From contig CAVPZX010000007.1 of the NCBI GenBank assembly GCA_963710375.1, forward strand, positions 26,986-90,985: a DNA stretch of 64,000 bases. The letters run 5' to 3'. A program made the position numbers and the translations under genes. This DNA comes from Nitrospirota bacterium. Lineage in GTDB: Bacteria > Nitrospirota > Thermodesulfovibrionia > Thermodesulfovibrionales > Dissulfurispiraceae. This document shows positions 9,377 through 55,279 of this stretch, piece after piece. Positions within the stretch are counted from its first letter, which is position 1; each line of letters starts with the position of its first letter. Below the pieces are notes generated by a model. It saw nothing but the letters and a program-made list of their open reading frames with translations, searched no databases and had not been told where the DNA came from.

Positions 9377-9384
9377 CTGAAAGA

Positions 9385-11517: not shown

Positions 11518-11565
11518 GTGAATAGTGGATAAAGACAGTGAAAGGTGAATAGTGAATGGTGAAAA
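11518..11565. repeat. Single arm of the GTGAATR 7-mer family
   Basis: gtgaata-gtggata...gtgaaag-gtgaata-gtgaatg-gtgaaaa, the same units as 9385-9412. Confidence 0.75.
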
Positions 11566-12099: not shown

Positions 12100-12204
12100 T
12101 AAGGCAAAGGTTAAGGTTAAGGTTAAGAATGTAGGCAAGACTTCTTAATATCTTTTTTGCTTTCAGTCCATCTTTCTCAACCTTAACCTTTGCCTCAACC
12201 TGCT
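12100..12204. repeat. Palindromic 6-mer tandem element (GGTTAA family)
   Basis: aaggcaaaggttaaggttaaggttaag ... tctcaaccttaacctttgcctcaacctgct. The right arm is the reverse complement of 28264-28295 with one mismatch. Confidence 0.85.
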
Positions 12205-21401: not shown

Positions 21402-21528
21402 ACCACAGAGACACAGAGACACGGAGAAAATAATTTATTATTCAAAAAGAAAAATTAAAAATTAATGAAGACCTCATTTTTTCACTTTATTAACTGTGAT
21501 TTTCTCTGTGTCTCTGTGTCTCTGTGGT
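21402..21528. repeat. Palindromic CACAGAGA 8-mer element
   Basis: 30-bp arms accacagagacacagagacacggagaaaat / attttctctgtgtctctgtgtctctgtggt (one mismatch) around an AT-rich spacer. Confidence 0.9.
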
Positions 21529-28263: not shown

Positions 28264-28306
28264 AGCAGGTTAAGGCAAAGGTTAAGGTTGAGAAAAACCC
28301 TTGACC
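28264..28306. repeat. GGTTAA-family element arm
   Basis: agcaggttaaggcaaaggttaaggttgagaaa is 31/32 identical to the reverse complement of 12173-12204. Confidence 0.85.
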
Positions 28307-39814: not shown

Positions 39815-40344
39815 CGCTTGTAAATACGCTTATTATAGTGGCAGCGAGCCTGCTGCTCATCGGGGGCATCTATTACCTGACCGGCGGCGGCTTTAAGGTA
39901 GCGCTAATAAATAAAAAATTCTCTTCCACCCAGGAGGCTGCGGCAGGCGGGGTTCAGGAAGCAACAGAGGCCTTAAGGCAGCTCATCAATGATTACAACA
40001 ACGGCGCCGGCGGCTTTACGCTAAGTAATAACATGGGGTTTCAAACCAATTATGCAGGCGCAGCGAACGTAATATTTTATTGCCAGAATACTCCACCTAC
40101 GGCAGCACTTCGCGCAAAAACCGCTGATGGCAGGTACCAGATAGATATGACGATCGCATGCCTGGGCCAAAAACCGGTTCCCGGCTCCGGAGGTGCCATG
40201 ATCTTCCCTCCGCCCCCTTCAGCCAGCGGCGGAGGTGGAACAGCGTTTTACTTTTATTCCATAACAGCCCAGGCGCAAGATATACTTGAAACAAAAAACC
40301 CCAGTATAGGCCAGGTACAAGCTGTTTACCGGCTGACGAGATAA
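39769..40344 (+). CDS. PilX-like minor pilin
   Basis: SG|VALVNTL lacking Glu+5 (a PilX hallmark), AAAGGV and FYSITAQA. Confidence 0.8.
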   Translation: MENNRTYYIFKESGVALVNTLIIVAASLLLIGGIYYLTGGGFKVALINKKFSSTQEAAAGGVQEATEALRQLINDYNNGAGGFTLSNNMGFQTNYAGAANVIFYCQNTPPTAALRAKTADGRYQIDMTIACLGQKPVPGSGGAMIFPPPPSASGGGGTAFYFYSITAQAQDILETKNPSIGQVQAVYRLTR

Positions 40345-40351
40345 AAAGATC

Positions 40352-40497
40352 GAAGGTGTGAAGATGAGAAGGTGCGAAGTTGAGAAGAGGCAAATCACAA
40401 ACGCGAAGACTTCTGTCGCAACTTCACAACTTCGCACCTTCTCATCTTCATCCTTTGACGTTGGCTCACCTTCACACCTTCACAACTTCGCACCTTC
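40352..40497. repeat. GAAGNTGN 8-mer palindromic element inside a lipoprotein 5' end
   Basis: Four forward units at 40352-40383; inverted blocks of four units at 40418-40449 and 40466-40497. Confidence 0.9.
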
Positions 40498-41245
40498 GTC
40501 CTTTAGGCGCCGCCTGCGGTTAATTGCCTCACTTGGGTTAGTGGTAATCCTTGCAGTACCGGGGTGTAAAGGGAAGGGCGGTCCTCCTGTGCAATCAACT
40601 TCTCCGAATGTTTCTGAACAGGCCACAGGAACATCCGGTGTTGACGCAAAGGGCGAGACCGGAACAATACAAAAAATTATAGTCTCGGGCGCGCCTGCTG
40701 CGAATAACACTGCTCTAATCTCTCACATAGAGATTACCCCGAAAGCCCCCAAGATCGGAGATACGATTACGATAAACCTTATTCCCCAGGCAGGGGTGTT
40801 GCTTTCATCAGTTCCAGTTGCCTTTGAATGGAGGAAAAACGGAGAAGGTCTGTCAGAGACATCAAACTCGCTCGCGGTAGACAGCAGGTTTAAAAGGGGT
40901 GACAAGGTCGAGGCGACCGTAACTGTCGACAGCGGAAAAGGCCCCAAGCAGTCTTGGCTCGCCTCGGTAGTAATAGCCAATTCTCCACCCGTGATTACTC
41001 CGGCAACTGAATTGGTGAAAGTAAACGGCAGCACATTCTCTTTCAAGGTGAATGCCAGTGATGCGGATGGAGACCCGTTAACATATACTCTAAAATCAGG
41101 TCCGCCTGGTACTACTGTTGACCCTGCAACAGGCAAAGTGACTTTTACAGTACCGGCTGACAATAAAACAAGCTCGCAGATAGCGGTGCTGGTTTCGGAT
41201 GGCCATGGCGGTGAGGCTATCTTCAATTTTGAGATGGGGAAATAA
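40358..41245 (+). CDS. Lipoprotein with Ig/cadherin-like domains
   Basis: h-region and lipobox LAVPGC, FEWRKNG, NSPPVI, ASDADGDPLTY and VSDGHGG. The exact start is uncertain (GTG 40358 or ATG 40364, both inside the repeat). Confidence 0.8.
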   Translation: MKMRRCEVEKRQITNAKTSVATSQLRTFSSSSFDVGSPSHLHNFAPSSFRRRLRLIASLGLVVILAVPGCKGKGGPPVQSTSPNVSEQATGTSGVDAKGETGTIQKIIVSGAPAANNTALISHIEITPKAPKIGDTITINLIPQAGVLLSSVPVAFEWRKNGEGLSETSNSLAVDSRFKRGDKVEATVTVDSGKGPKQSWLASVVIANSPPVITPATELVKVNGSTFSFKVNASDADGDPLTYTLKSGPPGTTVDPATGKVTFTVPADNKTSSQIAVLVSDGHGGEAIFNFEMGK

Positions 41246-41285
41246 AAATTACAAACAGGTTTATCTATCCATAAGTTTATAACGG

Positions 41286-41294
41286 TGATATAAT
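41286..41294 (+). promoter_or_regulatory. Extended -10 promoter
   Basis: TGATATAAT 17 nt upstream of ATG 41312. Confidence 0.55.
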
Positions 41295-41311
41295 TTCAAA
41301 CAAGAGGGACC

Positions 41312-42592
41312 ATGAACACTACACTAGAAAAAATGCCTGAATCGGTCGAAGCAGTCTATTTTTTTAGTGACATTGTCGGAAGAGAAGTCTTTAATAATAA
41401 CGAAAAGATCGGAAATCTCCATGATGTCACCATTCGCGACCACGAGAAGCTTCCGATAGTGACCCACTTTATAATCAACAGGCCGTTAGGCCAGAAGCCG
41501 CTCCTCGTCCCCTGGGCAAAGGTGGTCAGGATCGATCCAAAGGTTATCACACTCAATCTCGAATCAGCAGCGCAGTACGAAGGAGAGCCCGAAGAATCCC
41601 AGGTGCTTTTGAACAACGACATTCTTGACAAAAAAGTGATCGATATGGATGATAACGAGATTGACGTAGTCCATGACATCAGGCTGGTTTTGAACAGGGG
41701 AACCCTTTATGTTACAGATGTGGATTTCGGCAGGTACGGGCTAATGAAAAGACTCCATCTCAAACCGCTCATCAAGCTTCTGTTCGGCGATTCATCCAAG
41801 TTCCTGAAGAAGGATACACTATCCTGGTCATACGTACAGCCGTTGCAGGAAAATATTGGCAGATTCAAGGGCCGTGTCAAGCTGAATGTGCTGAAGGAAA
41901 AGCTGCTCGAAATACATCCGGTAGATATGGCCGATATCCTGGAGGAGCTGAATAAAGAGCAGCGGCTTGCCCTCTTCAATGAGCTAGAAACCGGCCACGC
42001 ATCGGATACCCTCGAAGAGATCGAGCCGAGAGTGCAGAAGGAATTAATTTTTTCTCTAAAGAAGGAAAAAGCGGCAGAGCTTATTAATGATATGACGCCT
42101 GGCCAGGCTGCCGATATCCTTGCCATTTTACCTGCGCCGGAAGCCGATGAGATTATGAAGCTGATCGATAAGGAAAGCGTTCGCAAGATACAATACATGC
42201 TAGACAAGCAGGAGGAGAAGCTTGTCAACCTTTCGACATCTCATTTCATCAAACTTTCGCCCAATACTCATGTCAGCCAGGTCCTTCTCCATTTTCGCGA
42301 GATGGCGAAAGACAAGGATGAGATCATGTACATCTATATTGTCGGAGAAAAGGATGCCTTATTGGGTGTTGTAGACCTTAAAGAAATACTACAGGCAAAA
42401 GAAGAGGACAAACTTGAGGATATTATGACAACGAGTGTTATCAGCCTGAAGCCCGAAGACACGCTCCTCGAGGCCGCTGAAATTTTTTCGAGATATGATT
42501 TCAGGGCGATCCCGGTTACCGATGATCACGATGTGATTCTAGGGGTCGTCCGTTACCGCGACATCGTGAAGCTCAAACATAAGTTCGTCTGA
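41312..42592 (+). CDS. Soluble PRC-barrel plus MgtE N-domain plus CBS-pair protein
   Basis: LLVPW, ILDKKVID, IHPVDMADILEEL, YIYIV...LLGVV and RYDFRAIPV; no TM segments. Confidence 0.85.
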   Translation: MNTTLEKMPESVEAVYFFSDIVGREVFNNNEKIGNLHDVTIRDHEKLPIVTHFIINRPLGQKPLLVPWAKVVRIDPKVITLNLESAAQYEGEPEESQVLLNNDILDKKVIDMDDNEIDVVHDIRLVLNRGTLYVTDVDFGRYGLMKRLHLKPLIKLLFGDSSKFLKKDTLSWSYVQPLQENIGRFKGRVKLNVLKEKLLEIHPVDMADILEELNKEQRLALFNELETGHASDTLEEIEPRVQKELIFSLKKEKAAELINDMTPGQAADILAILPAPEADEIMKLIDKESVRKIQYMLDKQEEKLVNLSTSHFIKLSPNTHVSQVLLHFREMAKDKDEIMYIYIVGEKDALLGVVDLKEILQAKEEDKLEDIMTTSVISLKPEDTLLEAAEIFSRYDFRAIPVTDDHDVILGVVRYRDIVKLKHKFV

Positions 42593-42705
42593 TCGTTTTG
42601 TAACATTATTGTAATGTTTTTTTGTTACGATAATCATCGGACTGCACACTGAGAACTATCCGATAGTCGTTTCCGCAGATTTGAATAGAAAAGGAGATTT
42701 CGGTA

Positions 42706-43851
42706 ATGGAGAATAATAGAGTTTTCCTCTGCCTCATCGCAGCAGGCGCGCTTTTACTGCTCACGTGTTCGGGATTCGGTTGCCGGCGCGGTGCAGCAGA
42801 TGGCGATACACACAATGTAATCGTGAAATCTCCCGATCCCGGTGTGCTCCAAATGGAACACCCGGAGCAGTTCCCCCTGGTAGAGGCTGAAGCCAGGAAA
42901 GTTGCTGATGAAACCCCTGTCAACGGGGTAGTCGCTCCGGATGTGAACCGCTCCGTAGCCGTATTGTCGCTGAGCGGCGGCCGTGTAGTGGACATTAAAG
43001 CCAGACTTGGAGACGACGTAAAAAAAGGCCAGATCCTGTTAAGGATACATAGCCCCGACCTCGCCGCTGCATTCTCTGATTTCGAAAAGGCACAGGCCGA
43101 TGAGATGCTGTCCCGTAAGCAATTAGAGCGTGCCAAGGGCCTCTTTGCAAATGGGGCCAACGCTGCAAAGGACCTGGAGGCCGCCCAGAATGCTGAGGAC
43201 AAGGCCAAGGTTGATCTGAAGATCGCGGCTGACCATGTCCGTGTGCTAGGCGGCGACCCTGATCATTTCTCTCCTGTTCTCGATGTTAGGGCGCCCATTT
43301 CCGGTACAATCGTCGAGCAGAATGTTACGGGCGGCACAGGGGTCCGTTCCCTGGATGCTACCCCAAACCTTTTCACCATCGCTGACCTGTCGCGCGTGTG
43401 GGTCTTGTGTGACGTTTACGAAGATGACATCTCACGGGTGCATTTAGGGGATACAGCCGAGGTCCGTCTTAATGCATTTCAAGACAGATTGTTCCGCGGC
43501 ATAGTAAGTAACATCAGCCGGGTAATGGACCCAAACATACGGTCGGCAAAGGTCCGCATCGAACTGGACAACCCGGGTCTGGTTATGCGTTCGGGTATGT
43601 TTGTAACAGCGGTGATTCGTTCTCCAAAAAGTATCGAACGGCCTGTTCTGCCCGCTTCCGCTATCGTGCGCCTTCATGACAAGTACTGGGTCTTCCAGCC
43701 TTTAGGCGGCAATCGATTCCGGAGAACAGAGGTACAGACCGGGCCTGAGGTGAACGACACACTCCAGCAAATTCTCTCGGGCTTAAAAGTTCATGACAAG
43801 GTGGTAGTCAACGCTCTGCAGTTTTCGAGTGCCTCAGAGGCAGCAAAATAA
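42706..43851 (+). CDS. RND efflux membrane fusion protein
   Basis: GRVVDI..RLGDDVKKGQ, RAPISGTI, LFTIADLSRVWV and MRSGMFV. Confidence 0.93.
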   Translation: MENNRVFLCLIAAGALLLLTCSGFGCRRGAADGDTHNVIVKSPDPGVLQMEHPEQFPLVEAEARKVADETPVNGVVAPDVNRSVAVLSLSGGRVVDIKARLGDDVKKGQILLRIHSPDLAAAFSDFEKAQADEMLSRKQLERAKGLFANGANAAKDLEAAQNAEDKAKVDLKIAADHVRVLGGDPDHFSPVLDVRAPISGTIVEQNVTGGTGVRSLDATPNLFTIADLSRVWVLCDVYEDDISRVHLGDTAEVRLNAFQDRLFRGIVSNISRVMDPNIRSAKVRIELDNPGLVMRSGMFVTAVIRSPKSIERPVLPASAIVRLHDKYWVFQPLGGNRFRRTEVQTGPEVNDTLQQILSGLKVHDKVVVNALQFSSASEAAK

Positions 43852-46800
43852 ATGATCGAACGGCTCCTCGATTTTGCTCTCCGAAACAAGATCCTGGTCC
43901 TGAGTATAGGCCTTCTGCTTCTTATCTGGGGCATAATTGCATTCCATCGTTTGCCTATAGAAGCTTACCCGGACGTGGCAGACAAATATGCCCAAGTGAT
44001 CACTCAGTGGCCCGGCCGGGCAGCAGAGGAGGTCGAACAGCAGGTCACGATTCCAATAGAGACACAAATGAACGGAATGGGACATCTCGTACACCTTCGT
44101 TCCCTTTCACTCGCCGGTTTGTCTGTCATAACCGTGATTTTCGATGACGACTCCGACAACCTCCAAAACCGCCAGCAGGTGCTCGAAAAGCTTACACTCG
44201 TAAATCTGCCCGCCGGCCTGAGCCCCCAGATAGGCGCTGATTTCAGCCCTGTAGGACAGGTATACTGGTATACCCTGGAGGGCAGGAATCCACAGTACGA
44301 TATCATGGAGCTGAAGCGGCTGCAAGACTGGACAGTATTCAAATATCTTATGTCGGTCCCGAATATTGCGTCTGTATCCGGCTTCGGCGGCCAGACCCGT
44401 GAATACCAGGTCCAGGTCGATCCCAACAAACTGGTTTCGTATGGATTGTCCATAGCTCAGGTGGAGCAGGCCCTCGCCGCGAACAATATCAATGCCGGCG
44501 GAAGCTTTATCGAAAGGGGTCAACAGGCCTACAACGTCAGGGTCGTTGGTTTGATGCGCGATACTGATGACATCGGCGCTACTATCCTGAAGACGCAGAA
44601 TGGGACGCCGGTCAGGATCAGGGATATAGCAATCGTAAGACAGGGACCCAAGATACGCCTGGGCCGCATAGGCAAGGCGATCCGGCACGAAGACGGACGT
44701 GTTATAGACGATGATGATGTTGTCGAGGGCATTGTCCAGATGCGGAAAGGAGCTGAAACAGAGTCAACAATGGCTGCCTTGCACGCCAAAGTCGCATATC
44801 TGAATAAACATATCCTGCCGCCCGGAGTTAAAATTATTTCCTACCTCGACCGCGACGATCTAGTCCACTATACGACGCATACAGTCCTCCGCAACCTTAC
44901 TGAGGGAATAATTCTGGTCGTAATAGTCCTCTTTATTTTCCTTGGGAATGTACGCTCTGCGATTATCGTGGCTCTCACAATCCCGTTTGCTTTGTTCTTC
45001 GCTTCCATCCTTCTCGACCTTCGTCACATCCCGGCCAATTTATTGTCTCTGGGCGCTCTTGATTTCGGAATGATCGTTGATGGTTCAGTCGTTATGGTGG
45101 AAAATATTTTGCGCAGGCTTGAGGAATCCGAAAAAAAGATGGGGAGCTTCAGCCAGACCATTCATCTGGCGGCACATGAAGTGCAGCGCCCCGTTTTTTT
45201 CTCGCGTGCGATCATCATTACTACCTTCCTGCCGATCTTTACTTTGCAGCGCGTCGAAGGCAGATTGTTTCATCCTATGGCGTGGACCGTGTGTTTCGCC
45301 TTGCTGGGAGCTCTGCTCTTTTCGATCCTGCTCGCTCCGGTGCTCGCGAGCTTCCTTTTCCGCAGGCGGGAGCAGAAATGGAAGAATCCTGTGCTGGTGT
45401 GGCTTCTGGACAATTACCCGAAGGCTCTGGACTGGTCGTTCCGTCACCGCATGCTCGTAATAGGATTAGGCGCAGCCTCACTCTGCCTGACTGTCTACCT
45501 AGCTACCAGCAAAGTGATCGGTTCCGAATTTTTGCCGCACCTCGACGAAGGCGCTATTTGGGCCAGGGGCACGCTCGATTCGAGCGTCGGGCCTTCAGAA
45601 GGCACACGTATCATGAATCAGGCACGGCTTGCATTTGCGGCTTTCCCTGAAGTGACTCAGGTTGTTTGCCAAATAGGCAGAACTGACGACGGTACAGATC
45701 CTACCGGCTTCTTCAACACCGAGTATTTCATCGACCTCAAGCCGCGGGACAAATGGCGAAAACAGTTTCATAAGAAAAAAGACGAGTTGATCGAAGCCCT
45801 GAACAAAGAAGTCGAAAAGATACCGGGCGTTGACTGGGGATTTTCGCAGCCCATCGAAGACAACATGGAGGAGGCCCTGAGTGGGGTAAAAGGCGAGTCT
45901 GCTGCCAAGCTTTTCGGCGGCGATCTGAAGGACCTTGAGCAGAAGGCAGGAGAAATAGCAGATGTTATGCGAACGGTCCCCGGAATCGAAGACCTTGGAG
46001 TTTTCAGAGTGCTTGGGCAGCCTAACCTGAACCTTATTGTCAATCGCGCAAAGGCAGACCGCTTCGGAATTAATGTGGTGGACATCCAGGACGCTATTCA
46101 AACGGCTGTGGGAGGCAATCCTGTGACAGAGGTGTTGAAAGGGGAAGAGCGCTTCGACCTGGTAGTGAGATACCAGGAACATTTCCGCAGGACCATCGAG
46201 GACATAGCGAACATACGGATTCTGGCGCCGTCCGGCGAAAGGGTCTCGCTCGGACAGCTATGTGATATTAAGGTTGAAGATGGAGCTTCGATGATCTACA
46301 GGGAGGCAAACTCGCGGTATATCGCCATAAAATACAGCGTACGCGGCAGGGACCTCGGAAGCACAGTTGAAGAAGCCATGAAGAGGGTCAATGACAAGGT
46401 GAAGCTGCCGCAAGGCTATCATCTTGACTGGGCCGGAGAGTATGAAAGCCAGAAGCGCGCAAATGCGCGACTTTCAATCATTATCCCTGTCGCGCTTCTC
46501 ATGATACTGCTTCTTCTCTACATGATGTTCAAATCGTTCAAGTGGGCCATCCTTGTCCTCGGCAACGTGGCCGCGGCCAGCATAGGAGGCTTTCTGTCTC
46601 TCCTTGCCACCGGGACTAATTTCAGCGTTTCATCTGGCATCGGGTTGCTTGCTCTGACAGGAGTGGCTGTGGAGATCGGCGTTATTATGGTGCAATATAT
46701 AAATCAGCTCCGTTCCAGAGGCTTGCATATCGAAAGTGCGGCAATCGGAGGCGCTACCCGCCGGCTGCGCCCTATCATTATGACGATGCTTGTCGCCACG

Positions 46801-46989
46801 CTGGGCTTATTGCCCGCGGCTTTGTCTCACGATATCGGGTCCGATTCCCAGCGTCCCTTTGCGATCGTAATTGTGGGCGGACTGATCACCAACCTGTTGA
46901 TAAGCGTCTTTCTATTGCCTACACTATACGTATGGATTGCAAGAGAGGACGATATACTTCCGAAGCCGGAGGAGAACAGTGAACAATAA
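43852..46989 (+). CDS. CusA/CzcA family RND transporter
   Basis: LPIEAYPD, ANLLSLGALDFGMIVDGSVVMVEN, RLRPIIMT and QRPFAIVIVGG. Confidence 0.95.
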   Translation: MIERLLDFALRNKILVLSIGLLLLIWGIIAFHRLPIEAYPDVADKYAQVITQWPGRAAEEVEQQVTIPIETQMNGMGHLVHLRSLSLAGLSVITVIFDDDSDNLQNRQQVLEKLTLVNLPAGLSPQIGADFSPVGQVYWYTLEGRNPQYDIMELKRLQDWTVFKYLMSVPNIASVSGFGGQTREYQVQVDPNKLVSYGLSIAQVEQALAANNINAGGSFIERGQQAYNVRVVGLMRDTDDIGATILKTQNGTPVRIRDIAIVRQGPKIRLGRIGKAIRHEDGRVIDDDDVVEGIVQMRKGAETESTMAALHAKVAYLNKHILPPGVKIISYLDRDDLVHYTTHTVLRNLTEGIILVVIVLFIFLGNVRSAIIVALTIPFALFFASILLDLRHIPANLLSLGALDFGMIVDGSVVMVENILRRLEESEKKMGSFSQTIHLAAHEVQRPVFFSRAIIITTFLPIFTLQRVEGRLFHPMAWTVCFALLGALLFSILLAPVLASFLFRRREQKWKNPVLVWLLDNYPKALDWSFRHRMLVIGLGAASLCLTVYLATSKVIGSEFLPHLDEGAIWARGTLDSSVGPSEGTRIMNQARLAFAAFPEVTQVVCQIGRTDDGTDPTGFFNTEYFIDLKPRDKWRKQFHKKKDELIEALNKEVEKIPGVDWGFSQPIEDNMEEALSGVKGESAAKLFGGDLKDLEQKAGEIADVMRTVPGIEDLGVFRVLGQPNLNLIVNRAKADRFGINVVDIQDAIQTAVGGNPVTEVLKGEERFDLVVRYQEHFRRTIEDIANIRILAPSGERVSLGQLCDIKVEDGASMIYREANSRYIAIKYSVRGRDLGSTVEEAMKRVNDKVKLPQGYHLDWAGEYESQKRANARLSIIIPVALLMILLLLYMMFKSFKWAILVLGNVAAASIGGFLSLLATGTNFSVSSGIGLLALTGVAVEIGVIMVQYINQLRSRGLHIESAAIGGATRRLRPIIMTMLVATLGLLPAALSHDIGSDSQRPFAIVIVGGLITNLLISVFLLPTLYVWIAREDDILPKPEENSEQ

Positions 46990-48517
46990 AAACACAGAAG
47001 TTGAGAAGTTGGGAAGTTGGGAAGTTGGGATTTTGGGATTTTGCTCAGCTTCACATCTTCACATCTTCGCAACTTCAATTCTGTCCCTTGTGCTAATGAC
47101 CGGATGCGCGGTTGGGCCAGATTTTCAGCGCCCGTCCGCGCCTGCTGTCTCCGACTACGCACTGCAGCCCCTTCCCGCGCAAACAGCTTCGGTTGATGTG
47201 AAGGGCGGCGAGGCGCAGCGTTTTGTGCGTGACATGGACATACCGGGCCAATGGTGGACACTTTTTCATTCCAAACCGCTCAATGACCTGATTGAACAAT
47301 CGCTCAAGGCCAACCCCGATCTTGAAGCCGCCAAGGCAACGCTCCGCGTCGCAAGAGAAAACGTCTATGCGCAGCAAGGCGCGTTCTTTCCAAGTGTGGA
47401 AGCCAGTTTCATTCCATCGCGACAAAAGTCTGCGGGAGTGTTGGCCCCTCCGTTAGCCAATAACAATGATCTCTACAGCCTTTACACTGCGCAGGTTGCT
47501 GTTGCATATGCTCCTGATGTGTTCGGAGGCAACCGTAGACAGGTGGAATCGCTCAAGGCACAGGCCGAATCGGAGCGCTTCCAGCTCGAAGCTGCTTGCC
47601 TGACACTGACATCGAACGTGGTAGCTGCTGCGGTACAGGAGGCTTCTTTGCGCGGACAAATTGCAGCCACTAAGCGGATTATCGATATCCAGAGTGATAC
47701 TCTCAAACTGCTGAAACGTCAATACGAGCTGGGCCAGGTTGCCGGTTTGGATGTGGCGGCACAGGAAGCAGCGCTCGCACAGGCAGAGGCTGCGCTGCCG
47801 CCGCTCGAAAAGCAGTTGGCGCAACAGCGCGACCTCCTGGCACGGCTTGCAGGTTCCTTCCCGAGCGAGAAACTTGCTCAGGAGTTTGAACTCTCTTCGC
47901 TGCAACTGCCCCAGGAACTTCCTGTGAGCCTTCCATCCAAATTAGTGGAGCAACGGCCTGACGTGAGGTCTGCCGAAGAGCAGCTGCATTCTGCCGGCGC
48001 AGAGATCGGCGTCGCAATAGCCAACCGGCTGCCGAATATTACGCTTAGCGCCAATTTGGGCAGCAGCGCTACTGCGATCAACAATTTGTTCAGCCCGGGA
48101 ACTGGATTTTGGGCACTTGCCGGTAATATCACACAGCCGGTCTTCCAGGGCGGCACATTGCTGCACAGGCAGCGTGCTGCTGAGGCAGCCTATGATCAGG
48201 CTGCTGCACAGTATCGCAGCACAGTGCTGACCGCATTCCAGAATGTGGCCGATAGTCTCCACGCAATACAATCCGATGCCGATGAACTGAAAGCTGCTGC
48301 CGCTGCAGAGCATGCCGCAGCCAAGAGCCTCTCCATTGCACAACATCAACTCGAATTGGGCGACATCAGTTATTTGGGACTTCTCAATGCCGAACAGACT
48401 TATCAGCAGGCGGTGATCAATATGGTGCAGGCCCTTGCAAACCGGTATTCTGATACCGCAGCGCTGTTCCAGGCCCTGGGCGGCGGCTGGTGGAACCGCT
48501 CTGACGTTAAAGAATAA
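46979..48517 (+). CDS. NodT family efflux outer membrane lipoprotein
   Basis: GTG start with GGAGG SD, lipobox LMTGC-AVGPDF, WWTLF, RPDVRSAE and ALGGGW. Confidence 0.93.
   Translation: MNNKNTEVEKLGSWEVGILGFCSASHLHIFATSILSLVLMTGCAVGPDFQRPSAPAVSDYALQPLPAQTASVDVKGGEAQRFVRDMDIPGQWWTLFHSKPLNDLIEQSLKANPDLEAAKATLRVARENVYAQQGAFFPSVEASFIPSRQKSAGVLAPPLANNNDLYSLYTAQVAVAYAPDVFGGNRRQVESLKAQAESERFQLEAACLTLTSNVVAAAVQEASLRGQIAATKRIIDIQSDTLKLLKRQYELGQVAGLDVAAQEAALAQAEAALPPLEKQLAQQRDLLARLAGSFPSEKLAQEFELSSLQLPQELPVSLPSKLVEQRPDVRSAEEQLHSAGAEIGVAIANRLPNITLSANLGSSATAINNLFSPGTGFWALAGNITQPVFQGGTLLHRQRAAEAAYDQAAAQYRSTVLTAFQNVADSLHAIQSDADELKAAAAAEHAAAKSLSIAQHQLELGDISYLGLLNAEQTYQQAVINMVQALANRYSDTAALFQALGGGWWNRSDVKE
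46997..47076. repeat. GAAGNTGN 8-mer palindromic element inside an OMF signal peptide
   Basis: gaagttga-(gaagttgg)x3-gattttgg ... tcagcttc-acatcttc-acatcttc-gcaacttc. Confidence 0.9.
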
Positions 48518-48611
48518 CCATAGCAACCGGTACCGAAAAAGGGACAAGGAAGAAATATATAAGCTCGTTGCACTGAGATTTAAAAAGTTCCCTACGTCTG
48601 AAGGAGATTAC

Positions 48612-49112
48612 ATGAAAAAAACCATAAAGGAAAGCTCAGTAGTGATGGCTCAAGTTATGCTGCCTCAGGATGCAAATCCGGCCGGTAATGTGCATGGTGG
48701 TGTGATAATGAAGCTGATTGATACAGCAGCGGGTGTGGTATCTAGTCGTCATGCTCGATCAAACACGGTCACCGCTTCTATAGATATGATGGCCTTCCAT
48801 AATCCTGTATTCGTCGGTGATCTGCTTTGGCTTAAGGCATGCATTAATATGGTTGGCAAGACCTCGATGGAGATTGGTGTCAGGGTAGAGGCTGAAAACT
48901 CCATTACGGGCGAGATCAGGCATACATCGTCGGCATATCTAACATTTGTTGCTCTTGGTCCTGATGGAAAACCTACGCAAGTGCCCGAGCTGATACTGGA
49001 TACAGATGACGATAGACGGAGGAATCAAGAGGCGATCATGCGGAGGAAGGCAAGGCTTGAGCTTCGGAGGAAAGAAGAACAATGTAAACAGGATGGTATT
49101 TGCCCGATCTAG
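48612..49112 (+). CDS. Acyl-CoA thioesterase (hotdog fold, YciA-like)
   Basis: AAGGAG SD, PQDANPAGNVHGG, VTASID, GKTSMEIGV and YLTFVA. Confidence 0.93.
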   Translation: MKKTIKESSVVMAQVMLPQDANPAGNVHGGVIMKLIDTAAGVVSSRHARSNTVTASIDMMAFHNPVFVGDLLWLKACINMVGKTSMEIGVRVEAENSITGEIRHTSSAYLTFVALGPDGKPTQVPELILDTDDDRRRNQEAIMRRKARLELRRKEEQCKQDGICPI

Positions 49113-49207
49113 GTCTTATAGTGCCTGAAGGACATCCTGGGTTGTTACACATTGGTCTGTTTTGGTGCAATTAATAAGCGTGGTGCGCCATTAAGTAAGG
49201 CAATTTC

Positions 49208-50752
49208 TCATGACTTGTTCCACCAACCCCCGCCTAGCGCCATAAATAATGCCGCGGTGTCGGCAAAGCGGTTGGCCTTTGCCTGCACGAGATTGATCAC
49301 TGCCTGCTGATAAGCCTGTTCGGCGGAGAGCAACGATAAGTAATTAACGTAGCCGAGTTCGAACTGCCGGCGTGCAAGGTCGAGGCTCCGTTTGGAGGCC
49401 TGCTCGAAGGCCGCTGCTGCTTTCAGGGTATCGGCATCGGATTGGAGCGCATGCAGAGTGTCCGCCACATTTTGGAAAGCTGCGATTACCGTGCTGCGAT
49501 ACTGCGCCTCAGCCTGATCAAGGCCAGCTTCAGCAGCGCGTTTCCTGTGCAGTAAAGTGCCCCCCTGGAAAATCGGCTGCGTAAGATCACCGGCCAGGGA
49601 CCAGAAGCCGGTGCCGGGGGTGAATAACTTGCTGATCCCTATAGCAGTGGAGCCCAAATCGGCACTGATTGTAATGTTCGGCAGCAAGGCGGCTACCGCT
49701 ACACCCACCTGGGCGTTGGCAGCATGCAGCTGCTCCTCGGCGGCACGCACGTCCGGGCGCTGCTCTACAAGTTTGGAGGGGAGGCTTACCGGCAGATCCT
49801 GCGGAAGACTGAGCGCCGCAAAATCGAATTTCTCCTCCAGTTCCTCGTTCGGGAAGCGTCCCGCAAGGGCAGTAAGCAGATCGCGAGTTTGTGCCAGCTG
49901 GTTCTGGAGTGGGGGCAAGGTTTGCTGCACCTGGGCAAGGGCCGCTTCCTGTGCCGCTACATCCAGCCCGGCAACATAACCGAGCTCGAACTGTCTGCGC
50001 AGCAGGGCGAGCATCTCGGTCTCGATCTTGACAATGCTGAGTGTTGCGGAAATCTGAGAGCGCAATGAAGCCTCCTGAATGGCTGCGGCCACCACGTTTG
50101 ACGTCAGCGCGAGATAAGTCGCCTCAAGCTGGAAACGTTGAAAATCGGCCTGGGCTGTCAGGGATTCCACCAGTCGCCGGTTGCTGCCGAAAACGTCAGG
50201 CGCATAGCCCACACTTACCTGAGCGGTGTGGAGATTATAGGGTTCTTCCTCGGAACTCAGCACCGGCGAAATGGTGCCTGAGTCCTTTGCGCGGCCGGCT
50301 GAATAACCGGCCTGGACAGTGGGATAGTAATAGCCGGCCTGGGCAGAGACGTTCTCCCGGGCCTGGCGCAAGGCTGCCTTAGCTGCGTCGATAGAGGGGT
50401 TAGTCTTAAGCGATTTTTCGATCAGCGCATTTAGCGTAGGCGACTTGAACAACGTCCACCACTGCTGCGGAATATCCATGCCCATGACAAACCGTTGCTC
50501 CTCGCCGCCTGCCACGTTTGCGGCAGATGATATTGAAGTCAGCGGCTGAACGGTATAGCCGCCATTGGCTGGTGCTGTGGGGCGATGGAAGTCAGGACCC
50601 ACTGTGCAACCGGCCATTAGCACAAGGGCCAGGAGAGAAGTTGCGGAGGTGAGAAGTTGAGAAGTTGGGATTTTGCTCATCTTCACATCTTCACATCTTC
50701 GCAACTTCGGTTTTTTCTCATCTTCCCAACTTCTCAACTTCTCAACTTCCAT
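49208..50752 (-). CDS. NodT family efflux outer membrane lipoprotein (paralogue)
   Basis: ATG 50752 with GAGG SD, lipobox LMAGC-TVGPDF, RPDVRAAE and ALGGGWW. Confidence 0.92.
   Translation of the reverse strand: MEVEKLRSWEDEKKPKLRRCEDVKMSKIPTSQLLTSATSLLALVLMAGCTVGPDFHRPTAPANGGYTVQPLTSISSAANVAGGEEQRFVMGMDIPQQWWTLFKSPTLNALIEKSLKTNPSIDAAKAALRQARENVSAQAGYYYPTVQAGYSAGRAKDSGTISPVLSSEEEPYNLHTAQVSVGYAPDVFGSNRRLVESLTAQADFQRFQLEATYLALTSNVVAAAIQEASLRSQISATLSIVKIETEMLALLRRQFELGYVAGLDVAAQEAALAQVQQTLPPLQNQLAQTRDLLTALAGRFPNEELEEKFDFAALSLPQDLPVSLPSKLVEQRPDVRAAEEQLHAANAQVGVAVAALLPNITISADLGSTAIGISKLFTPGTGFWSLAGDLTQPIFQGGTLLHRKRAAEAGLDQAEAQYRSTVIAAFQNVADTLHALQSDADTLKAAAAFEQASKRSLDLARRQFELGYVNYLSLLSAEQAYQQAVINLVQAKANRFADTAALFMALGGGWWNKS
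50637..50749. repeat. GAAGNTGN 8-mer palindromic element inside an OMF signal peptide
   Basis: Four forward units at 50637-50668; inverted blocks at 50677-50708 and 50718-50749. The core matches 47021-47076. Confidence 0.9.
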
Positions 50753-53700
50753 TGTGTGCCTCACTCTTTTCACTTTTTATCTGTTTTTCACGCAGGAACA
50801 GCATACTGAGCGCCGGCACGACTACAAGCAGCATGAATGGGCCGATGAACATGCCGCCAACGATCACGGTAGCAAGCGGGCGCTGCACCTGGCTTCCGAT
50901 GCCGGTCGAAATCGCTGCAGGGAGAAGACCGATACAGGCGGAGAGACTTGTCATAAGCAATGGACGCATGCGGGTTGATGCGGCGTGGAACATCGCGTCC
51001 ACGGGCGCGCTTCCGCGGAGCCTTGCCTGGTTGTAATAGGTAATCATCAGTATGCCGTTCATGACGGATACGCCAAATAGCGAGACAAAGCCGACAGCGG
51101 CAGAGATGCTGAAATTGAGACCGGAGATATAGAGGGCCAACACGCCGCCGGCAACTGCGAAGGGTATTCCGACAAGCGCCAGCAGGCTGTCACGCAGCGA
51201 ATTGAACGTGGTATAGAGCAGCCCCAGGATAAGCACGAGGCTGATCGGCACTATGATTTCGAGGCGCTTTTTGGCTTTCTGCAGGTCGCCAAATTCGCCG
51301 GCCCAGATGAGCCGGTACCCGGGCGGCAGCTTCACGTTTTTCGCGATCTGATTCTGGGCTTCGGCAACAGTGCCACCGAGGTCGCGTTCGCGCACGCTGA
51401 ACTTGACCGGGATGAAGCGTTGCACACTCTCGTGATAGATCCAGGACGCCCCGGTGTCCAGGGTGATCGTCGCCACTTCGCTCAAGGGGATATAAGCGTT
51501 GGCGCCGCTGCTCGTTTGATAAGCCACCTTGACGTCGCGGATTTTTTCGATGCTGTCGCGGTATTTTGGCGGGAAACGGACAACCAGATCGAACTGGCGA
51601 TCGCCCTCTAAAACAGATGTTGCCGTTGTTCCGCCAAGCGCTGCCTGAATAACAGTGTTGACATCGCCGGTATTGAGACCATACCGCGCGGCATTGGCCC
51701 TATCCACCTTGATATTCAGGTTCGGCTGTCCCAGGACCGGAAAGATTCCGAGGTCGGCGACGCCGCGGACCTTACTCATTTGGTCCCGGATTTGCGTGGC
51801 CAGCTTTGTCAAGGTTTCGAGATTTGGTCCGACGATCTTGACCGAGTTGACGGCTTTGACGCCGGAAATGGCCTCTTCGATGTTGTCCTGGATATATTGA
51901 GAGAAGTTGAAGATGACCCCGGGCAACTCGCGCTCAAGTCCGGCGTTGACCTGCTCGGTCAGTTTCTCCTTGGTCATACCCCTTGGCCATTGGTCGAGAG
52001 GCTTGAGCACAGCGAACAGTTCGACATTCGAAAATGGCGACGCATCGCTGCCGTCATCGGGCCTGCCATGCTGGGAGGTTACGGTAATGACCTCAGGAAA
52101 TTTCAGGAGAATCAGGCGCATCTTTCTCGTAGCCGCCTCACCGTCTTCCAACGAAAGCGTTGTGGGCATGGAAGCGCGGATCCAAAAATTGCCTTCTTCA
52201 AGTTGCGGTAGGAATTCGCTTCCGAGCCACTGGACCAGCAATCCGGCCAAGGCTATAAAAATAATTCCGATAACCACTATGATCCTGCGGCGGTCGAGGG
52301 CGAAACGAAGCACCGGATCGTAAAGGCGGTGCAGTAAGCGGACTACTATTGTCTCGGTTTCCTTCAGATGATCGGGGAGCAGAAAGGACGCAAGCACAGG
52401 GGTGACTGTGAAAGTTGCTATCAAGGCGCCGGCCAGCGCGTAACCGTATGTGCGGGCCATTGGGCCGAATATTGCTCCCTCGACTCCTTGCATTGTGAAG
52501 AGCGGCACGAAAGCGGCCACGGTGATCAAGGCTGAGAAAAAAACTGCCTTGTCCACTTGCAGCGCGCTTATCAGAATCAGCCGCAGTCGGTCCGTCCATT
52601 TGTGGCTTTGGCCCAGTGCAGCATGCGTCGATATTCTCGTCGGATCAGCCCCCCAGTGGCCCTCGGCAAGATTTTGGAACAGACCATGTCTTTCTTCCTG
52701 GCTTCCCTGGAAGTTTCGGAAGATGTTCTCGACAAGGATCACAGCCGAATCCACTATGATGCCGAAATCAACTGCGCCGACCGAGAGCAGGTTCGCGCTT
52801 TCGCCCTGGATCACCAGGAGGATGATCGCGAAGAACAGCGCAAACGGAATATTGAATCCGACGATGATGGCGCTGCGGAGATTACCGAGGAAAATCCATT
52901 GAACCAGGAAGACCAGAAGGCATCCAAAGATCAGGTTGTGCAAAACGGTTTGGGTAGTGACCGAGATCAATGATCCGCGATCATAAAAGGGAACCAGCTT
53001 GACACCTGGCGGCAAGCTCCCATCGTGATTCATCTTCTCAATTTCGGCTTTGACCTTTGGCAGCATGTCGTGAGCATGCTCTGTACGGCTCATCACCACA
53101 ATCGATGCCACGGCGTCGTCCTCCATGTCGTGACCCCAAATCCCTAGTCTTGGCCTATAGCCCACTAAGACCTTCGCAACATCCTTTACCAGAACGGGGA
53201 CGCCGTTTGCTTGGGTGAGGACAACGTTCTCGATGTCATCAACCTTGTAGCCCTGGGTCAAATCATCACTACCGCCATCGTCAATCAGCCCGACTCCGCG
53301 GATGTTGATGGATTGCTGGCCGATGCGGATTTCACGTCCTCCCACGTTGATATTGGCGTTACCCAGAGCTGTCAGGATTTGGGGCACCGTGACATTGTAG
53401 GCTTCCAATTTGTGCGGATCGGCTTCGACCTCGAATTCCTTTGTTGGGCCGCCCCAACTGTTGATGGCAATTATGCCGGGAATGGTCAACAAACGGCGCG
53501 CTACGATCCAATCCTGGACCGTTCTGAGATTGGTTATTCCGAAATGCTTCGGACCGATCACCTGGTAACGGAATATTTCCCCGGTACCGCTGTTTTGTTG
53601 AATCGTGGGCACCAGATTGCCCGGAAGACTGACATTTTGTTGCAATGAGATGGCAGCCTGGCTGTAGGCAAAATGATAGTCCACCCCATACTTGAAAACG

Positions 53701-53984
53701 ACCCGGACGAATGACAGGCCATAAAACGAGGTTGACCGGATGACATCGATGCCTGGAGTTGTGTAGAGCCCGATTTCGATTGGGCGAGTATAGTAACGCT
53801 CCATCTCCTCGGCCGAGAGGCCCGGCGACTGCGCGGTAATCTCAAGGATGACCGGAGCTGGATTTGGATAGGCATCGATGTTGAGCTTTTGAAAAGAGAG
53901 GAACGCGCCACCCGCAAACAGCAGCAACCCTACAACAACAATTGCCCGGTGGGTCAGACAAAATGATATGAGCGACTTGAACAT
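50742..53984 (-). CDS. CusA/CzcA family RND transporter (paralogue)
   Basis: LNIDAYP, ANLLSVGAVDFGIIVDSAVILVEN, RMRPLLMT and QRPLATVIVGG. Confidence 0.95.
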   Translation of the reverse strand: MFKSLISFCLTHRAIVVVGLLLFAGGAFLSFQKLNIDAYPNPAPVILEITAQSPGLSAEEMERYYTRPIEIGLYTTPGIDVIRSTSFYGLSFVRVVFKYGVDYHFAYSQAAISLQQNVSLPGNLVPTIQQNSGTGEIFRYQVIGPKHFGITNLRTVQDWIVARRLLTIPGIIAINSWGGPTKEFEVEADPHKLEAYNVTVPQILTALGNANINVGGREIRIGQQSINIRGVGLIDDGGSDDLTQGYKVDDIENVVLTQANGVPVLVKDVAKVLVGYRPRLGIWGHDMEDDAVASIVVMSRTEHAHDMLPKVKAEIEKMNHDGSLPPGVKLVPFYDRGSLISVTTQTVLHNLIFGCLLVFLVQWIFLGNLRSAIIVGFNIPFALFFAIILLVIQGESANLLSVGAVDFGIIVDSAVILVENIFRNFQGSQEERHGLFQNLAEGHWGADPTRISTHAALGQSHKWTDRLRLILISALQVDKAVFFSALITVAAFVPLFTMQGVEGAIFGPMARTYGYALAGALIATFTVTPVLASFLLPDHLKETETIVVRLLHRLYDPVLRFALDRRRIIVVIGIIFIALAGLLVQWLGSEFLPQLEEGNFWIRASMPTTLSLEDGEAATRKMRLILLKFPEVITVTSQHGRPDDGSDASPFSNVELFAVLKPLDQWPRGMTKEKLTEQVNAGLERELPGVIFNFSQYIQDNIEEAISGVKAVNSVKIVGPNLETLTKLATQIRDQMSKVRGVADLGIFPVLGQPNLNIKVDRANAARYGLNTGDVNTVIQAALGGTTATSVLEGDRQFDLVVRFPPKYRDSIEKIRDVKVAYQTSSGANAYIPLSEVATITLDTGASWIYHESVQRFIPVKFSVRERDLGGTVAEAQNQIAKNVKLPPGYRLIWAGEFGDLQKAKKRLEIIVPISLVLILGLLYTTFNSLRDSLLALVGIPFAVAGGVLALYISGLNFSISAAVGFVSLFGVSVMNGILMITYYNQARLRGSAPVDAMFHAASTRMRPLLMTSLSACIGLLPAAISTGIGSQVQRPLATVIVGGMFIGPFMLLVVVPALSMLFLREKQIKSEKSEAHNGS

Positions 53985-53986
53985 GG

Positions 53987-55180
53987 CTAATCGGTTGGCG
54001 GCGCGTCCAGCATGCTGCTCAGGAATACGCCGCCATCGGTAACTACCAGTTCGCCCGGTTGGAGACCTTCGACAATCTGATCCCAGCCGTCCTTTTGCAG
54101 GCCAAGCTTGACCGGCCTTTGCGCGAAGCTATGGCGGTCCGTGGTGATCCAAACAGTAATCGTGCCGTCGCCTTCGTGGACCACGCTCGTAGACGGGACC
54201 GCAATAGAGCGGACCGGGTCACCCATACGAATGGTAAAGGCGGCGAGCATTCCCGGCCGCAGTTCGTGCTTAGGATCATGAATTTCCGAGCGGACCATGA
54301 GCCGATGAGTATTCGGGTCGACGGCTGCGCCGAGGGTCGAAATTTTTCCCTCGAACAGCCGGCCCGGAAATGCCATGAGCTTGACCTTGACCTCCTGTCC
54401 AACATGGAAAAGCGGGCTATCGCTTTCGGTAACATACGCCAGCATCCAAATGGTCGATATGTCGGCAACCGAGTAAGGGGCGGGCGGGGCGCCGGGTTGC
54501 ACCAGGAGTCCTGGCGCAGCATTTCGGGCTGTGACGCGTCCTGTTAACGGGCTGGGCACGACCATCACTGGGTCGATCCGCCGCCTGGCCACGATTTGAT
54601 CGATCTCGGCTTCAGTTTTGCCGAAGATGCGAACAGCAGGGCGGGCCGCCTTGAGCGCACCCTCAGCAGTCTGCTGGTCGGAGATTGCCTGTTGCAGATC
54701 CTTCTGGGAGATTCCCTGTGTCTCATAGAGCTTCCTGGCCCGTTCCAGCGCCTGGGTGGTAAGGTCCAGGACACCCGCAGTCGAGATCAAAGTCGATTCT
54801 GCCTGTATAAGGTCTGGACTCTCAATTGTGTATAGCGTTTTCCCTTTGGCCACCTCATCGCCTAGGTTGGCGAACAGCCCGATGATTTTCCCCTGGTTCG
54901 GCGGGAAGACCTGAACCGACCTGTCCTGGTTGAAGTCGAGACTGCCTACCGCCTCTCGCTCGATCTCGAAAAGATGCTCTCCTACAGGCTCGACCTTGAT
55001 CGATTTAAGCTGAGCATCTTCCAGTGTCACGGTTTTTGTTACGAGAGGGTCGGTTGATTTGATCATATCCTTGCGTGAACCGCCCGGCGTTTCGGAACCT
55101 GCAGAATTGCAGCCGGCTCCCGAAGCGACAAACAGGAAAAGCCAGCACAGATAAAATATTTGCTTAATGTGCCGTCGCAC
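53987..55180 (-). CDS. RND efflux membrane fusion lipoprotein
   Basis: GTG start (AAGGTGG SD), GAGC lipobox, SPLTGRV, ADISTIWM and LRPGM. Confidence 0.9.
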   Translation of the reverse strand: MRRHIKQIFYLCWLFLFVASGAGCNSAGSETPGGSRKDMIKSTDPLVTKTVTLEDAQLKSIKVEPVGEHLFEIEREAVGSLDFNQDRSVQVFPPNQGKIIGLFANLGDEVAKGKTLYTIESPDLIQAESTLISTAGVLDLTTQALERARKLYETQGISQKDLQQAISDQQTAEGALKAARPAVRIFGKTEAEIDQIVARRRIDPVMVVPSPLTGRVTARNAAPGLLVQPGAPPAPYSVADISTIWMLAYVTESDSPLFHVGQEVKVKLMAFPGRLFEGKISTLGAAVDPNTHRLMVRSEIHDPKHELRPGMLAAFTIRMGDPVRSIAVPSTSVVHEGDGTITVWITTDRHSFAQRPVKLGLQKDGWDQIVEGLQPGELVVTDGGVFLSSMLDAPPTD

Positions 55181-55247
55181 AGTGTACCACCTTTCTTTCC
55201 GCTCAAATGAAGTATATGCTTTAAACATGGTGCTATAATAAAAAATA

Positions 55248-55266
55248 AAACTTACACCAAACTTAC
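55248..55266. promoter_or_regulatory. 11-bp-period direct repeat, candidate OmpR-family operator
   Basis: AAACTTAC-acc-AAACTTAC in the divergent intergenic region, next to TGCTATAAT (+, 55231) and TATACT (-, 55211-55216). Confidence 0.55.
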
Positions 55267-55279
55267 GGGTAGATAGCGA

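Follow-up and report, generated by a model that had tools for sequence, protein, structure and literature searches.

The closest described systems each share part of their organization with the repeats analyzed here. The STRR of cyanobacteria are heptamer repeats. In the P6b stem-loop of the Nostoc trnL intron, two 7-nt repeat classes occupy one RNA site and, as in our elements, the stem consists of paired short degenerate tandem repeats; on repeated, independent occasions one class has taken the place of the other at this fixed site (PMC4476775). The 23S rRNA intervening sequences (IVS) of Coxiella and Leptospira carry an S23p/PF05635 ORF, whose product is a toroidal homopentamer (PMC4990558). 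As here, a four-helix-bundle ORF lies between inverted arms and a hairpin is inserted in the 23S rRNA; in the Coxiella IVS, tandem heptamers also immediately precede the ORF, a likeness to the present arms (PMC4990558). Rickettsia palindromic elements (RPE) and in-frame MITEs resemble our repeats in being palindromes of ~100-150 nt, fused in frame to host ORFs, for which relatives show empty alleles (PMC10969869). REP/REPIN elements are likewise non-autonomous inverted doublets that insert into or beside existing copies, each family having a single-copy partner gene (PMC3116915). Finally, the TAACTGA heptamers of Beggiatoaceae are similar in being short tandem repeats close to start and stop codons, of which only the strand without stops is found within ORFs, for the most part at the ends of proteins (PMC4679880). 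Unlike the present palindromes they are mostly direct repeats, and the searched text of that study contains neither "signal peptide" nor "four helix bundle" (PMC4679880).

The window, a stretch of 64,000 nucleotides from a Nitrospirota genome (hereafter G000), contains three palindromes of the GAAGNTGN family, in which units of 8 bases are arranged as mirror-image repeats. The arrays and the lipoprotein genes that carry them are the following:

40364..41245, + strand: Ig-domain (Big_9, PF17963) lipoprotein gene, lipobox Cys at 40565; the stop of the upstream ORF is at 40342-40344
40352..40497, + strand: GAAGNTGN palindrome with an additional pyrimidine arm, in the leader of the Ig-domain lipoprotein gene
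46979..48517, + strand: NodT-type OMF lipoprotein 1 (OMF1), GTG start with a strong SD, Cys at 47105
46997..47076, + strand: GAAGNTGN palindrome, in frame, 6 codons past the OMF1 start
49208..50752, - strand: NodT-type OMF lipoprotein 2 (OMF2), ATG at 50752, Cys at 50608
50637..50749, - strand: GAAGNTGN palindrome whose purine arm is doubled, in the OMF2 leader

The preliminary description reported these palindromes as free of in-frame stops, and the arrays are indeed real: the reading frames are open across all three as far as the lipobox Cys (40565, 47105 and 50608). In array-bearing leaders this Cys is predicted to follow a hydrophobic stretch, the lipoprotein signal peptides being called by regular expression and hydropathy alone. 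The placement of the arrays between start and h-region stands for OMF1 and for OMF2 (ATG 50752), but not for the Ig gene, whose only starts, GTG 40358 and ATG 40364, both lie within the repeat. Similarly, no usable start follows the Ig repeat, as had been stated, but OMF2 has an in-frame ATG (50680) in the repeat loop. The repeats had also been thought to add residues to the leaders; in OMF1 the repeat takes the place of the central part of the leader and does not merely lengthen it (the leader has 42 aa, those of five syntenic orthologues 23-41 aa). The 40352-40497 palindrome (z -8.6) provides the Ig leader with its n-region, both candidate starts and an SD-like AGGTG that pairs with the anti-SD at -8.0 kcal/mol. 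OMF1 and OMF2 match TIGR01845 with scores above the cut-off, and both adjoin RND genes: the OMF1 GTG overlaps the 3' end of one (stop 46987-46989), and the stop codon of the other, upstream of OMF2 (50742-50744), falls in the first unit of the array. No Rfam family was found in window positions 40000-51500. The seven other arrays checked in the window were intergenic, as described, or touched only a first possible start; elsewhere in the genome this does not apply, and other families occur inside the signal peptides of SBP_bac_5 and FlgH lipoproteins, FliP, TolB, a carbonic anhydrase and an AhpC/TSA protein.

A three-unit pattern for the GAAGNTGN family has 57 matches in G000 and none in the reversed control, hence the arrays are not due to chance. 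The genome has 24 arrays of this family, the majority at junctions right after a stop codon, with 6 in lipoprotein leaders, 4 gene-internal and 1 forming the N-terminus of a sensor kinase; 11 of the 24 thus fall in open frames, with predicted translation. The family is one among many palindrome families with units of 6-8 bases, amounting to about 130 copies; its unit is an octamer, while most sister families are heptamers. Array starts lie between -30 and +40 nt of a same-sense stop in 93/130 cases over all families and in 17/24 for the GAAGNTGN family. The usual layout is a purine arm, a loop of variable length (4-82 nt) and a pyrimidine arm, in which the purine arm leads in 112 of 114 palindromes (2 in the mirror control) and four units per arm in 54/68 elements on each side. 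The arms are degenerate tandem arrays. We rejected exact mirror copies: arms aligned from their outer ends match no better than shuffles, and in the best register at least 20 nt are common to 2/73 pairs (2.1 in shuffles). The claim of a multicopy, non-autonomous-looking element is borne out by near-identical copies at unrelated loci and by an empty allele in the congener G008. Extra arms and changes in unit number are seen among copies. In slipped-strand phase variation of the opa type, unit-number variants of leaders shift the frame within a population; the prevalence of four degenerate units per arm argues against such a process. The purine arm of the GAAGNTGN family has a single stop position, which reads TGA if A is the last base, and this is probably why the family enters coding DNA more often than most. 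This TGA is avoided in the copies predicted to be translated (0/31 in frame vs 56/87 out of frame, a partly circular comparison since copies were selected for open frames). A strict 4+3-unit pattern found no phage copies in viral_contigs.

Repeat hairpins have probably dispersed along with small four-helix-bundle genes (TIGR02436/PF05635, S23p). Among the copies of these genes listed, 6 from the source genome and 16 from congeners, most have a purine arm of the matching family upstream and a pyrimidine arm downstream, and the cassettes sit in mRNA operons, not in rRNA. The partner of the GAAGNTGN family is the four-helix-bundle gene at C5:208077 of G000. It is present in G000-G003 (34-75 pattern matches) and was not found in G004-G009 (0-1 matches), so that the presence or absence of family and partner agrees in 10/10 congeners. 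G000-G003 are not one clade, as the distribution takes 3 changes on the ValRS tree, 2 of them forced by starred branches. All four partner genes are at one locus, and therefore the co-occurrence may track an operon. Three further genomes (G011, G019 and G036) have 1-3 pattern matches and no partner was found in them, which weighs against the explanation preferred below. GxxExxY genes were considered as partner and discarded, with 0 in the genome.

For 5 of the 6 array-bearing lipoprotein leaders of G000, the corresponding site in relatives is occupied by another family. For example, the OMF1 site of G008 has a different family, and the OMF2 site of G007 has a 7-mer family whose purine-arm remnant survives just upstream in the window. 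The MFP leader has 4 families across 6 genomes, the RlpA site four or more, and the LptE-like leader has an 8-mer in some genomes and 7-mers in others. Families are also swapped between relatives in prepilin leaders, at ordinary gene junctions (HolA, DedA, RmuC/TrpD) and at a 23S rRNA hairpin. The LptE-like and prepilin labels are presumed from gene position and motifs, with no Pfam or NCBIfam match, and the labels Tgt, RfbG/H, HolA, DedA, RmuC, TrpD, RecJ, ComF and TPR-membrane-protein are likewise putative, assigned from sequence. Aligning orthologues, as had been proposed, revealed empty alleles: the Ig leader has one copy in the G003 orthologue and is empty, at 20 aa, in G008. About 20/53 mapped sites have empty alleles, as judged by eye. 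Arrays also occur in convergent gaps and protein interiors, and gene-less copies lie in the 23S rRNA hairpin at RF02541 positions 276-295, which would place them outside helix 9, 25 or 45.

Each known system also differs from these elements in some respect. With MITEs they share near-identical dispersed copies, empty alleles and terminal inverted repeats round a non-coding core, though the arms are degenerate tandem arrays. Flanking direct repeats of 80 elements show no target-site duplication (3.9 nt vs 4.0 nt in shuffles), no transposase was found adjoining the arrays, the one Y1 transposase of the genome is far from every array, and no reverse transcriptase was found in the genome. That no mobility enzyme emerged from these searches counts against our preferred explanation. 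In-frame placement within ORFs (11/24 arrays) recalls RPE, but the conserved ~150-bp sequence encoding a conserved peptide is absent. Unlike RPE, the elements have tandem-unit arms and variable loops, are mostly intergenic and swap families in place (PMC10969869). The analogy with RPE, drawn in the preliminary description, and with MITEs is therefore loose, holding for in-frame, dispersed copies and not for target-site duplication, an adjacent transposase or the swapping of families at one site. The repeat does not flank a RAYT gene: the gene between its arms is TIGR02436/PF05635, and the Y1 gene is elsewhere. The partner is thus a four-helix-bundle protein without known catalytic activity rather than the Y1 transposase of REP/REPIN, and the arms, unlike theirs, are tandem arrays (PMC3116915). 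As in 23S IVS, a PF05635 ORF lies between inverted arms, but it does so in mRNA operons, with gene-less copies dispersed (PMC4990558), and the 23S copy is not in helix 9, 25 or 45. Paired degenerate arms with class replacement at a fixed site are shared with STRR/P6b, but the GAAGNTGN family lacks the heptamer unit. Unlike Nostoc P6b, there are about 130 sites, units of 6-8 nt, many families, leader-borne copies in open frames (predicted translation) and a four-helix-bundle link (PMC4476775). A literature search, mostly of freely accessible journals, turned up no report of palindromic repeats that form signal peptides, nor of four-helix-bundle gene arms in dispersed form.

Arm architecture, open frames, an association with four-helix-bundle genes and same-site family replacement in close relatives are demonstrated. 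On this basis, we favor, with a probability of about 60%, the reading that the window repeats are gene-less copies of a short-unit palindrome family, which likely land in hairpin-tolerant sites, leaders being tolerated and not targeted. The three repeats would belong to families (6-8-nt units) whose arms also bracket TIGR02436/S23p genes, and the elements would insert in or overwrite such sites, mainly right after stop codons. Their retention in lipoprotein leaders probably stems from loose constraint and from cleavage of the leaders, not from targeting. Before an exported, translationally coupled gene, the frame would continue through the hairpin: the purine arm would read as a charged n-region and could provide an SD and an ATG, while the pyrimidine arm, lacking stop codons, would read as a Ser/Leu/Phe-rich segment adjoining the h-region and, in sister 7-mer families, would itself make the h-region. 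Hydropathy by arm agrees with this assignment of purine to n-region and pyrimidine to the h-region side. More weakly, the four-helix-bundle protein may bind tandem units and help spread or maintain them, and the hairpin of the Ig gene might conceal its own start, making translation depend on an upstream ribosome.

With these repeats, two long-standing questions become open to testing, the role of the widespread S23p four-helix-bundle proteins and the origin of bacterial 7-8-base repeats, as one genus provides repeat families matched to their partner genes as well as orthologous slots with differing families. They also suggest that, between close relatives, conserved lipoproteins can have their export signals rebuilt out of repeat DNA, which would explain unusual N-termini and wrongly called starts in genomes of this kind. 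A bolder version, possible though doubtful, has four-helix-bundle (S23p/Avd-like) pentamers acting in trans in a system that needs neither transposase nor RT and writes four-unit arms, specific to each family, into existing hairpin slots over those of the previous family. If true, whole signal peptides and prepilin leaders, as well as a helix of the 23S rRNA, would be rewritten from one sister species to the next, and loss of a partner gene would entail the disappearance of its family from the genome.

An alternative that we consider unlikely is that the arrays are maintained cis-regulatory sites, where a four-helix-bundle pentamer would bind the four tandem units on the RNA and tune translational coupling, with slots kept by selection through exchanges of family. 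The prevalence of four-unit arms (54/68), the homopentameric toroid of S23p (PMC4990558) and slots that outlast family changes are in line with it, as are arms that are not mutual copies, which binding sites would predict rather than a selected perfect stem. At shared sites, fixed unit positions are 91% identical, beyond variable positions (47-58%) and four-fold sites (56-65%), values ascertained on the motif that favor both this alternative and our preferred explanation. On the other hand, empty alleles are common, including that of the G008 Ig leader, and 23S rRNA, convergent gaps and protein interiors are occupied without evident regulatory logic.

It is highly unlikely that the repeats serve as spacers that escape translation, or that the genes are decaying, with true starts within or past the repeat. 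Starting at ATG 50680 would give OMF2 a leader of normal length (24 aa), albeit with a weaker SD (-5.1 vs -8.1 for ATG 50752), the n-region of the OMF1 leader has a net charge of -1 (Ig +7, OMF2 +2), and the Ig hairpin would bury its own start. Against this, the OMF1 start and SD, upstream of the repeat, are conserved in position in syntenic orthologues, the Ig gene has no usable start past the repeat, and in-frame TGA is seen in 0/8 cases in the six G000 leaders vs 33-48% in untranslated arms. The three lipoprotein genes of the window are intact and under purifying selection: their domains are complete and dN/dS is 0.09-0.24 (0.24 for the Ig gene, against G003 and G008), on which grounds we reject pseudogenes, one of the refutations that had been envisaged.

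The idea that the element prefers to insert in cleavable signal peptides as a safe harbour, put forward in the preliminary description, is by now very improbable, being largely refuted. The genome-wide enrichment it called for is found for the family in G000, where 6/24 arrays lie in lipoprotein leaders (binomial p 2e-5 to 3e-4, which weighs against our explanation) and one in the sensor-kinase N-terminus; without the window genes, 3 of about 12 junction copies remain (p 0.003-0.011). Four congener arrays are in prepilin leaders, and both G011 arrays lie in leaders. However, just 2/84 arrays of the family in three congeners are in lipoprotein leaders, both common to G000, as are 0/21 copies from other metagenomes, and about 20 congener copies are inside mature proteins. 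Over all families, operon-internal lipoprotein junctions are occupied in 7/42 cases vs 156/1599 for other junctions (p=0.18, or p=0.79 minus the three window genes); without the operon filter the figures are 12/70 vs 202/2589 (p=0.011), which also weighs against our explanation. The narrower claim, that signal peptides are a safe harbour at which the elements aim, thus fails. Repeat hairpins are likely tolerated in signal peptides, not aimed there, and the tolerance is apparent at occupied lipoprotein junctions, where the arm is absorbed into the leader in 9/12 cases (all families).

Local growth by slippage without dispersal, from a seed such as ATG-AAG, fits the GAAG at the start codon of the empty Ig allele and of prepilin starts and the changes in arm and unit number, but is improbable in the extreme: slippage does not produce a mirror arm, arm length is mostly constant at four units, and a ~105-nt copy, loop included, is near-identical at 8 loci with differing neighbours across four genomes.

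The three palindromes of the GAAGNTGN family in the window are found where the preliminary description had placed them, and the repeat feature is genuine. In each, GAAGNTGN units make up a purine arm, and a mirrored pyrimidine arm lies beyond the loop; the hairpins have folding z-scores of -8.6, -2.5, and -3.75, respectively. As previously described, no stop interrupts the repeats, and the open frames reach the lipobox cysteines at 40565, 47105, and 50608.

Repeat features of the window
40352-40497: GAAGNTGN array, Big_9 (Ig-domain) lipoprotein gene
46997-47076: GAAGNTGN array, OMF1, a NodT-type outer-membrane lipoprotein gene
50637-50749: GAAGNTGN array, OMF2, a second NodT-type gene
7215-7288, 9378-9460, 11518-11563, 12107-12190, 21404-21526, 28267-28289: four further families (7-mer, 6-mer, 8-mer), as palindromes or arms between genes

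Both NodT genes are the last of RND efflux operons, and the mature parts of the three genes have dN/dS of 0.09-0.24 against congeners. Among named records, those with close OMF1 homologues are mostly Nitrospirota and deltaproteobacterial MAGs, which suggests a Nitrospirota host. At 42706-55354, a thioesterase gene is flanked by two facing paralogous MFP-RND-OMF operons; both of their OMF leaders carry one and the same variant of the element, but its orientation with respect to the gene is reversed from one to the other.

The three-unit GAAGNTGN pattern has 57 matches in this 3.19-Mb genome (G000) and 0 for the reversed control. The census detected 25 clusters, one of which (two units) was excluded; the 24 arrays were assigned by eye, using our own ORF caller.

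Placement of the 24 arrays in G000
6: lipoprotein leaders (the three window genes, RlpA, an RND adaptor, an LptE-like protein)
1: sensor-kinase N-terminus
4: in frame within genes
13: intergenic or overlapping last codons

Counting all of the many families, the genome holds some 130 palindromes with units of 7-8 nt, besides those of 6-mer families. The purine arm leads in 112 of 114 palindromes, and the array starts between -30 and +40 nt from a stop codon in 93 of 130. It is possible, if doubtful, that the arrays are regulatory binding sites. Purine arms translate as Lys/Arg/Glu-rich stretches; several 7-mer pyrimidine arms are strongly hydrophobic (mean hydropathy about 2), that of the GAAGNTGN family being near neutral, which argues that the GAAGNTGN repeat is mainly an n-region and that sister families make h-regions. 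The other families of the window had been called intergenic there, which broadly holds; elsewhere in the genome, sister families form h-regions of SBP_bac_5, FlgH, FliP, TolB, carbonic anhydrase, and AhpC/TSA leaders. Genes for TPR-type membrane proteins contain as many as three repeat palindromes each, all in frame, and the families involved differ between genomes (loci L080, L098, L110, L123, L127, L135; G000 contig C5:211835-216927).

The OMF1 start is GTG 46979, which has a strong Shine-Dalgarno (SD) sequence (-10.2 kcal/mol) and a position identical to that in the syntenic orthologues compared. Its leader has 42 aa, versus 23-41 aa in five orthologues lacking a recognisable array, which argues that the element took the place of the leader's central part. 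For OMF2, the most likely start is ATG 50752 (SD -8.1); a weaker alternative, ATG 50680 (SD -5.1), is within the repeat loop, and the stop of the upstream RND gene falls within the first repeat unit. The proposed position of the repeat, between start and h-region, suits OMF1 but not the Ig-domain gene, whose only starts are inside the repeat (SD-like AGGTG from unit one, ATG from unit two, -8.0). The leader of this gene is empty in the related genome G008 (20 aa), and G003 has a single copy. Within translated copies, the one position that can become a stop reads TGA in 0 of 31 in-frame instances versus 56 of 87 out-of-frame ones (baseline in untranslated arms, 33-48%), in a test that is partly circular. 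We infer translation and cleavage of the leaders, translational coupling, and any role of the four-helix-bundle protein, whereas the structure and distribution of the repeats, the family swapping, and the gene link are observed; untranslated repeats are improbable.

In G000, the GAAGNTGN family is enriched in lipoprotein leaders (6/24, p 2e-5 to 3e-4, with 68-70 of the 2659 genes predicted by regex to encode lipoproteins), three of the six being the copies that prompted the finding. The enrichment vanishes in independent samples. Among 84 arrays in G001-G003, placed by eye, two are in lipoprotein leaders, both at sites common to G000, four in prepilin leaders, one in what may be a secreted protein, some 20 within proteins, and the remainder intergenic. 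Seven of 28 metagenome copies duplicate G001 sites, and none of the remaining 21 (about four without a callable gene) is in a leader. A noisy all-family detector (548 arm blocks versus 123 in the mirror control) gave occupancies of 12/70 for lipoprotein junctions versus 202/2589 (p=0.011), with no significant excess for operon-internal junctions (7/42 versus 156/1599, p=0.18), nor when window genes were removed (4/39, p=0.79). The arm is within the open frame near the Cys in 9 of the 12 occupied lipoprotein junctions; among non-exported genes in the G000 survey it was absorbed in one likely case, ComF-like. Hence, the idea of signal peptides as a safe harbour survives as retention, but not as targeting, which is very unlikely.

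The replacement of one family by another at a given site, with its tie to four-helix-bundle genes, is the more interesting outcome. Close relatives hold different families at orthologous sites. At the RND-adaptor leader, G000 has the GAAGNTGN family, G003 a different octamer, and G002/G001 and G005/G008 two distinct heptamers, one per pair. The LptE-like leader has an octamer in G000 and G001 and heptamer arms in five other genomes. RlpA, compared across eight genomes, has four or more families, and one of its alleles is empty. Heptamer families occupy the OMF1 site in G008 and the OMF2 site in G007. Prepilin leaders and non-exported junctions (HolA, DedA, RmuC/TrpD) also show swapping, as does a 23S rRNA hairpin (RF02541 positions 276-295), possibly a small IVS, with the GAAGNTGN family in G002 and G003, a 6-mer family in both G000 copies, and 98% identical flanking rRNA.

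Swapped loci
L085:1236-1305 (G003), L095:1218-1299 (G002), L323 (G000 C2): 23S hairpin palindromes
L117, L109, L322 (G000 C5:194800-195300): prepilin-like leader repeats

Repeat arms make up the leaders of two adjacent prepilin-like genes, immediately ahead of what we take to be the G-F cleavage motif; G000 has a purine arm of 7-mers there, and both G001 and G002 have the 8-mer palindrome. The sites of 53 of the 84 congener arrays could be placed in G000: the family was unchanged at 19, a different family or array stood at 10, and 24 were scored empty, several of which, among the sites listed, have by eye other-family arms missed by the detector. Remnant 7-mer arms outside many copies suggest that these inserted into, or overwrote, older hairpins.

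Arms have four units on either side in 54 of 68 simple elements, and an A-rich motif occurs 5-8 nt beyond both ends; we found neither target-site duplication nor covariation of variable positions between arms. At 11 shared sites, identity is 91% at fixed, 47-58% at variable, and 56-65% at four-fold positions, in a comparison whose sites were ascertained by the motif itself and that includes one pair out of register. A variant of about 105 nt recurs, loop included and nearly unchanged, at 8 loci across four genomes, a sign that it was dispersed by copying; local slippage is the least likely origin of the arrays.

G000 has six TIGR02436 four-helix-bundle genes above the cut-off, most bracketed by an upstream purine arm and a downstream pyrimidine arm that belong to a single family; the same holds for the majority of 16 congener copies examined. 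The copy at C5:208077 (PF05635, weak Avd match) has GAAGNTGN-family arms. This gene type is present in G000-G003 and was not found in G004-G009, matching array presence in 10/10 genomes, a co-occurrence that rests on one locus and incomplete genomes; G000-G003 are non-monophyletic, G005 (94% complete) and G008 (74%) falling among them in the ValRS tree. G011, G019, and G036 have 1-3 stray matches and no partner found, and G023 and G025 have distant homologues with other arms. No reverse transcriptase was found, nor any Y1 transposase adjacent to arrays. We favour, with a probability of roughly 0.6, a scenario in which four-helix-bundle cassettes would give rise to gene-less derivatives that settle in hairpin-tolerant slots following stop codons; lipoprotein leaders would be one such slot, where selection would filter copies for open frames. 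In the literature searched, we found no account of repeat palindromes as signal peptides or of a link to dispersed cassettes; PARCELs (PMC2996958) are protein-domain repeats and a different thing.

Several congeners have ValRS genes (orthologues of window 18575-21388; L241-L250) with insertions of 6-18 aa that are in frame and lineage-specific, and some of these hold a CCCCTCC-like palindrome of another kind. At L100 and L130 (G001, G002), GAAGNTGN palindromes are immediately upstream of a gene judged by eye to be tRNA-like, and the G000 site is empty. Finally, in a sugar-nucleotide operon (G000 C5:207919-210357, L006), five arrays surround the partner four-helix-bundle gene, three in frame in enzymes, and a single-arm remnant persists in G009.
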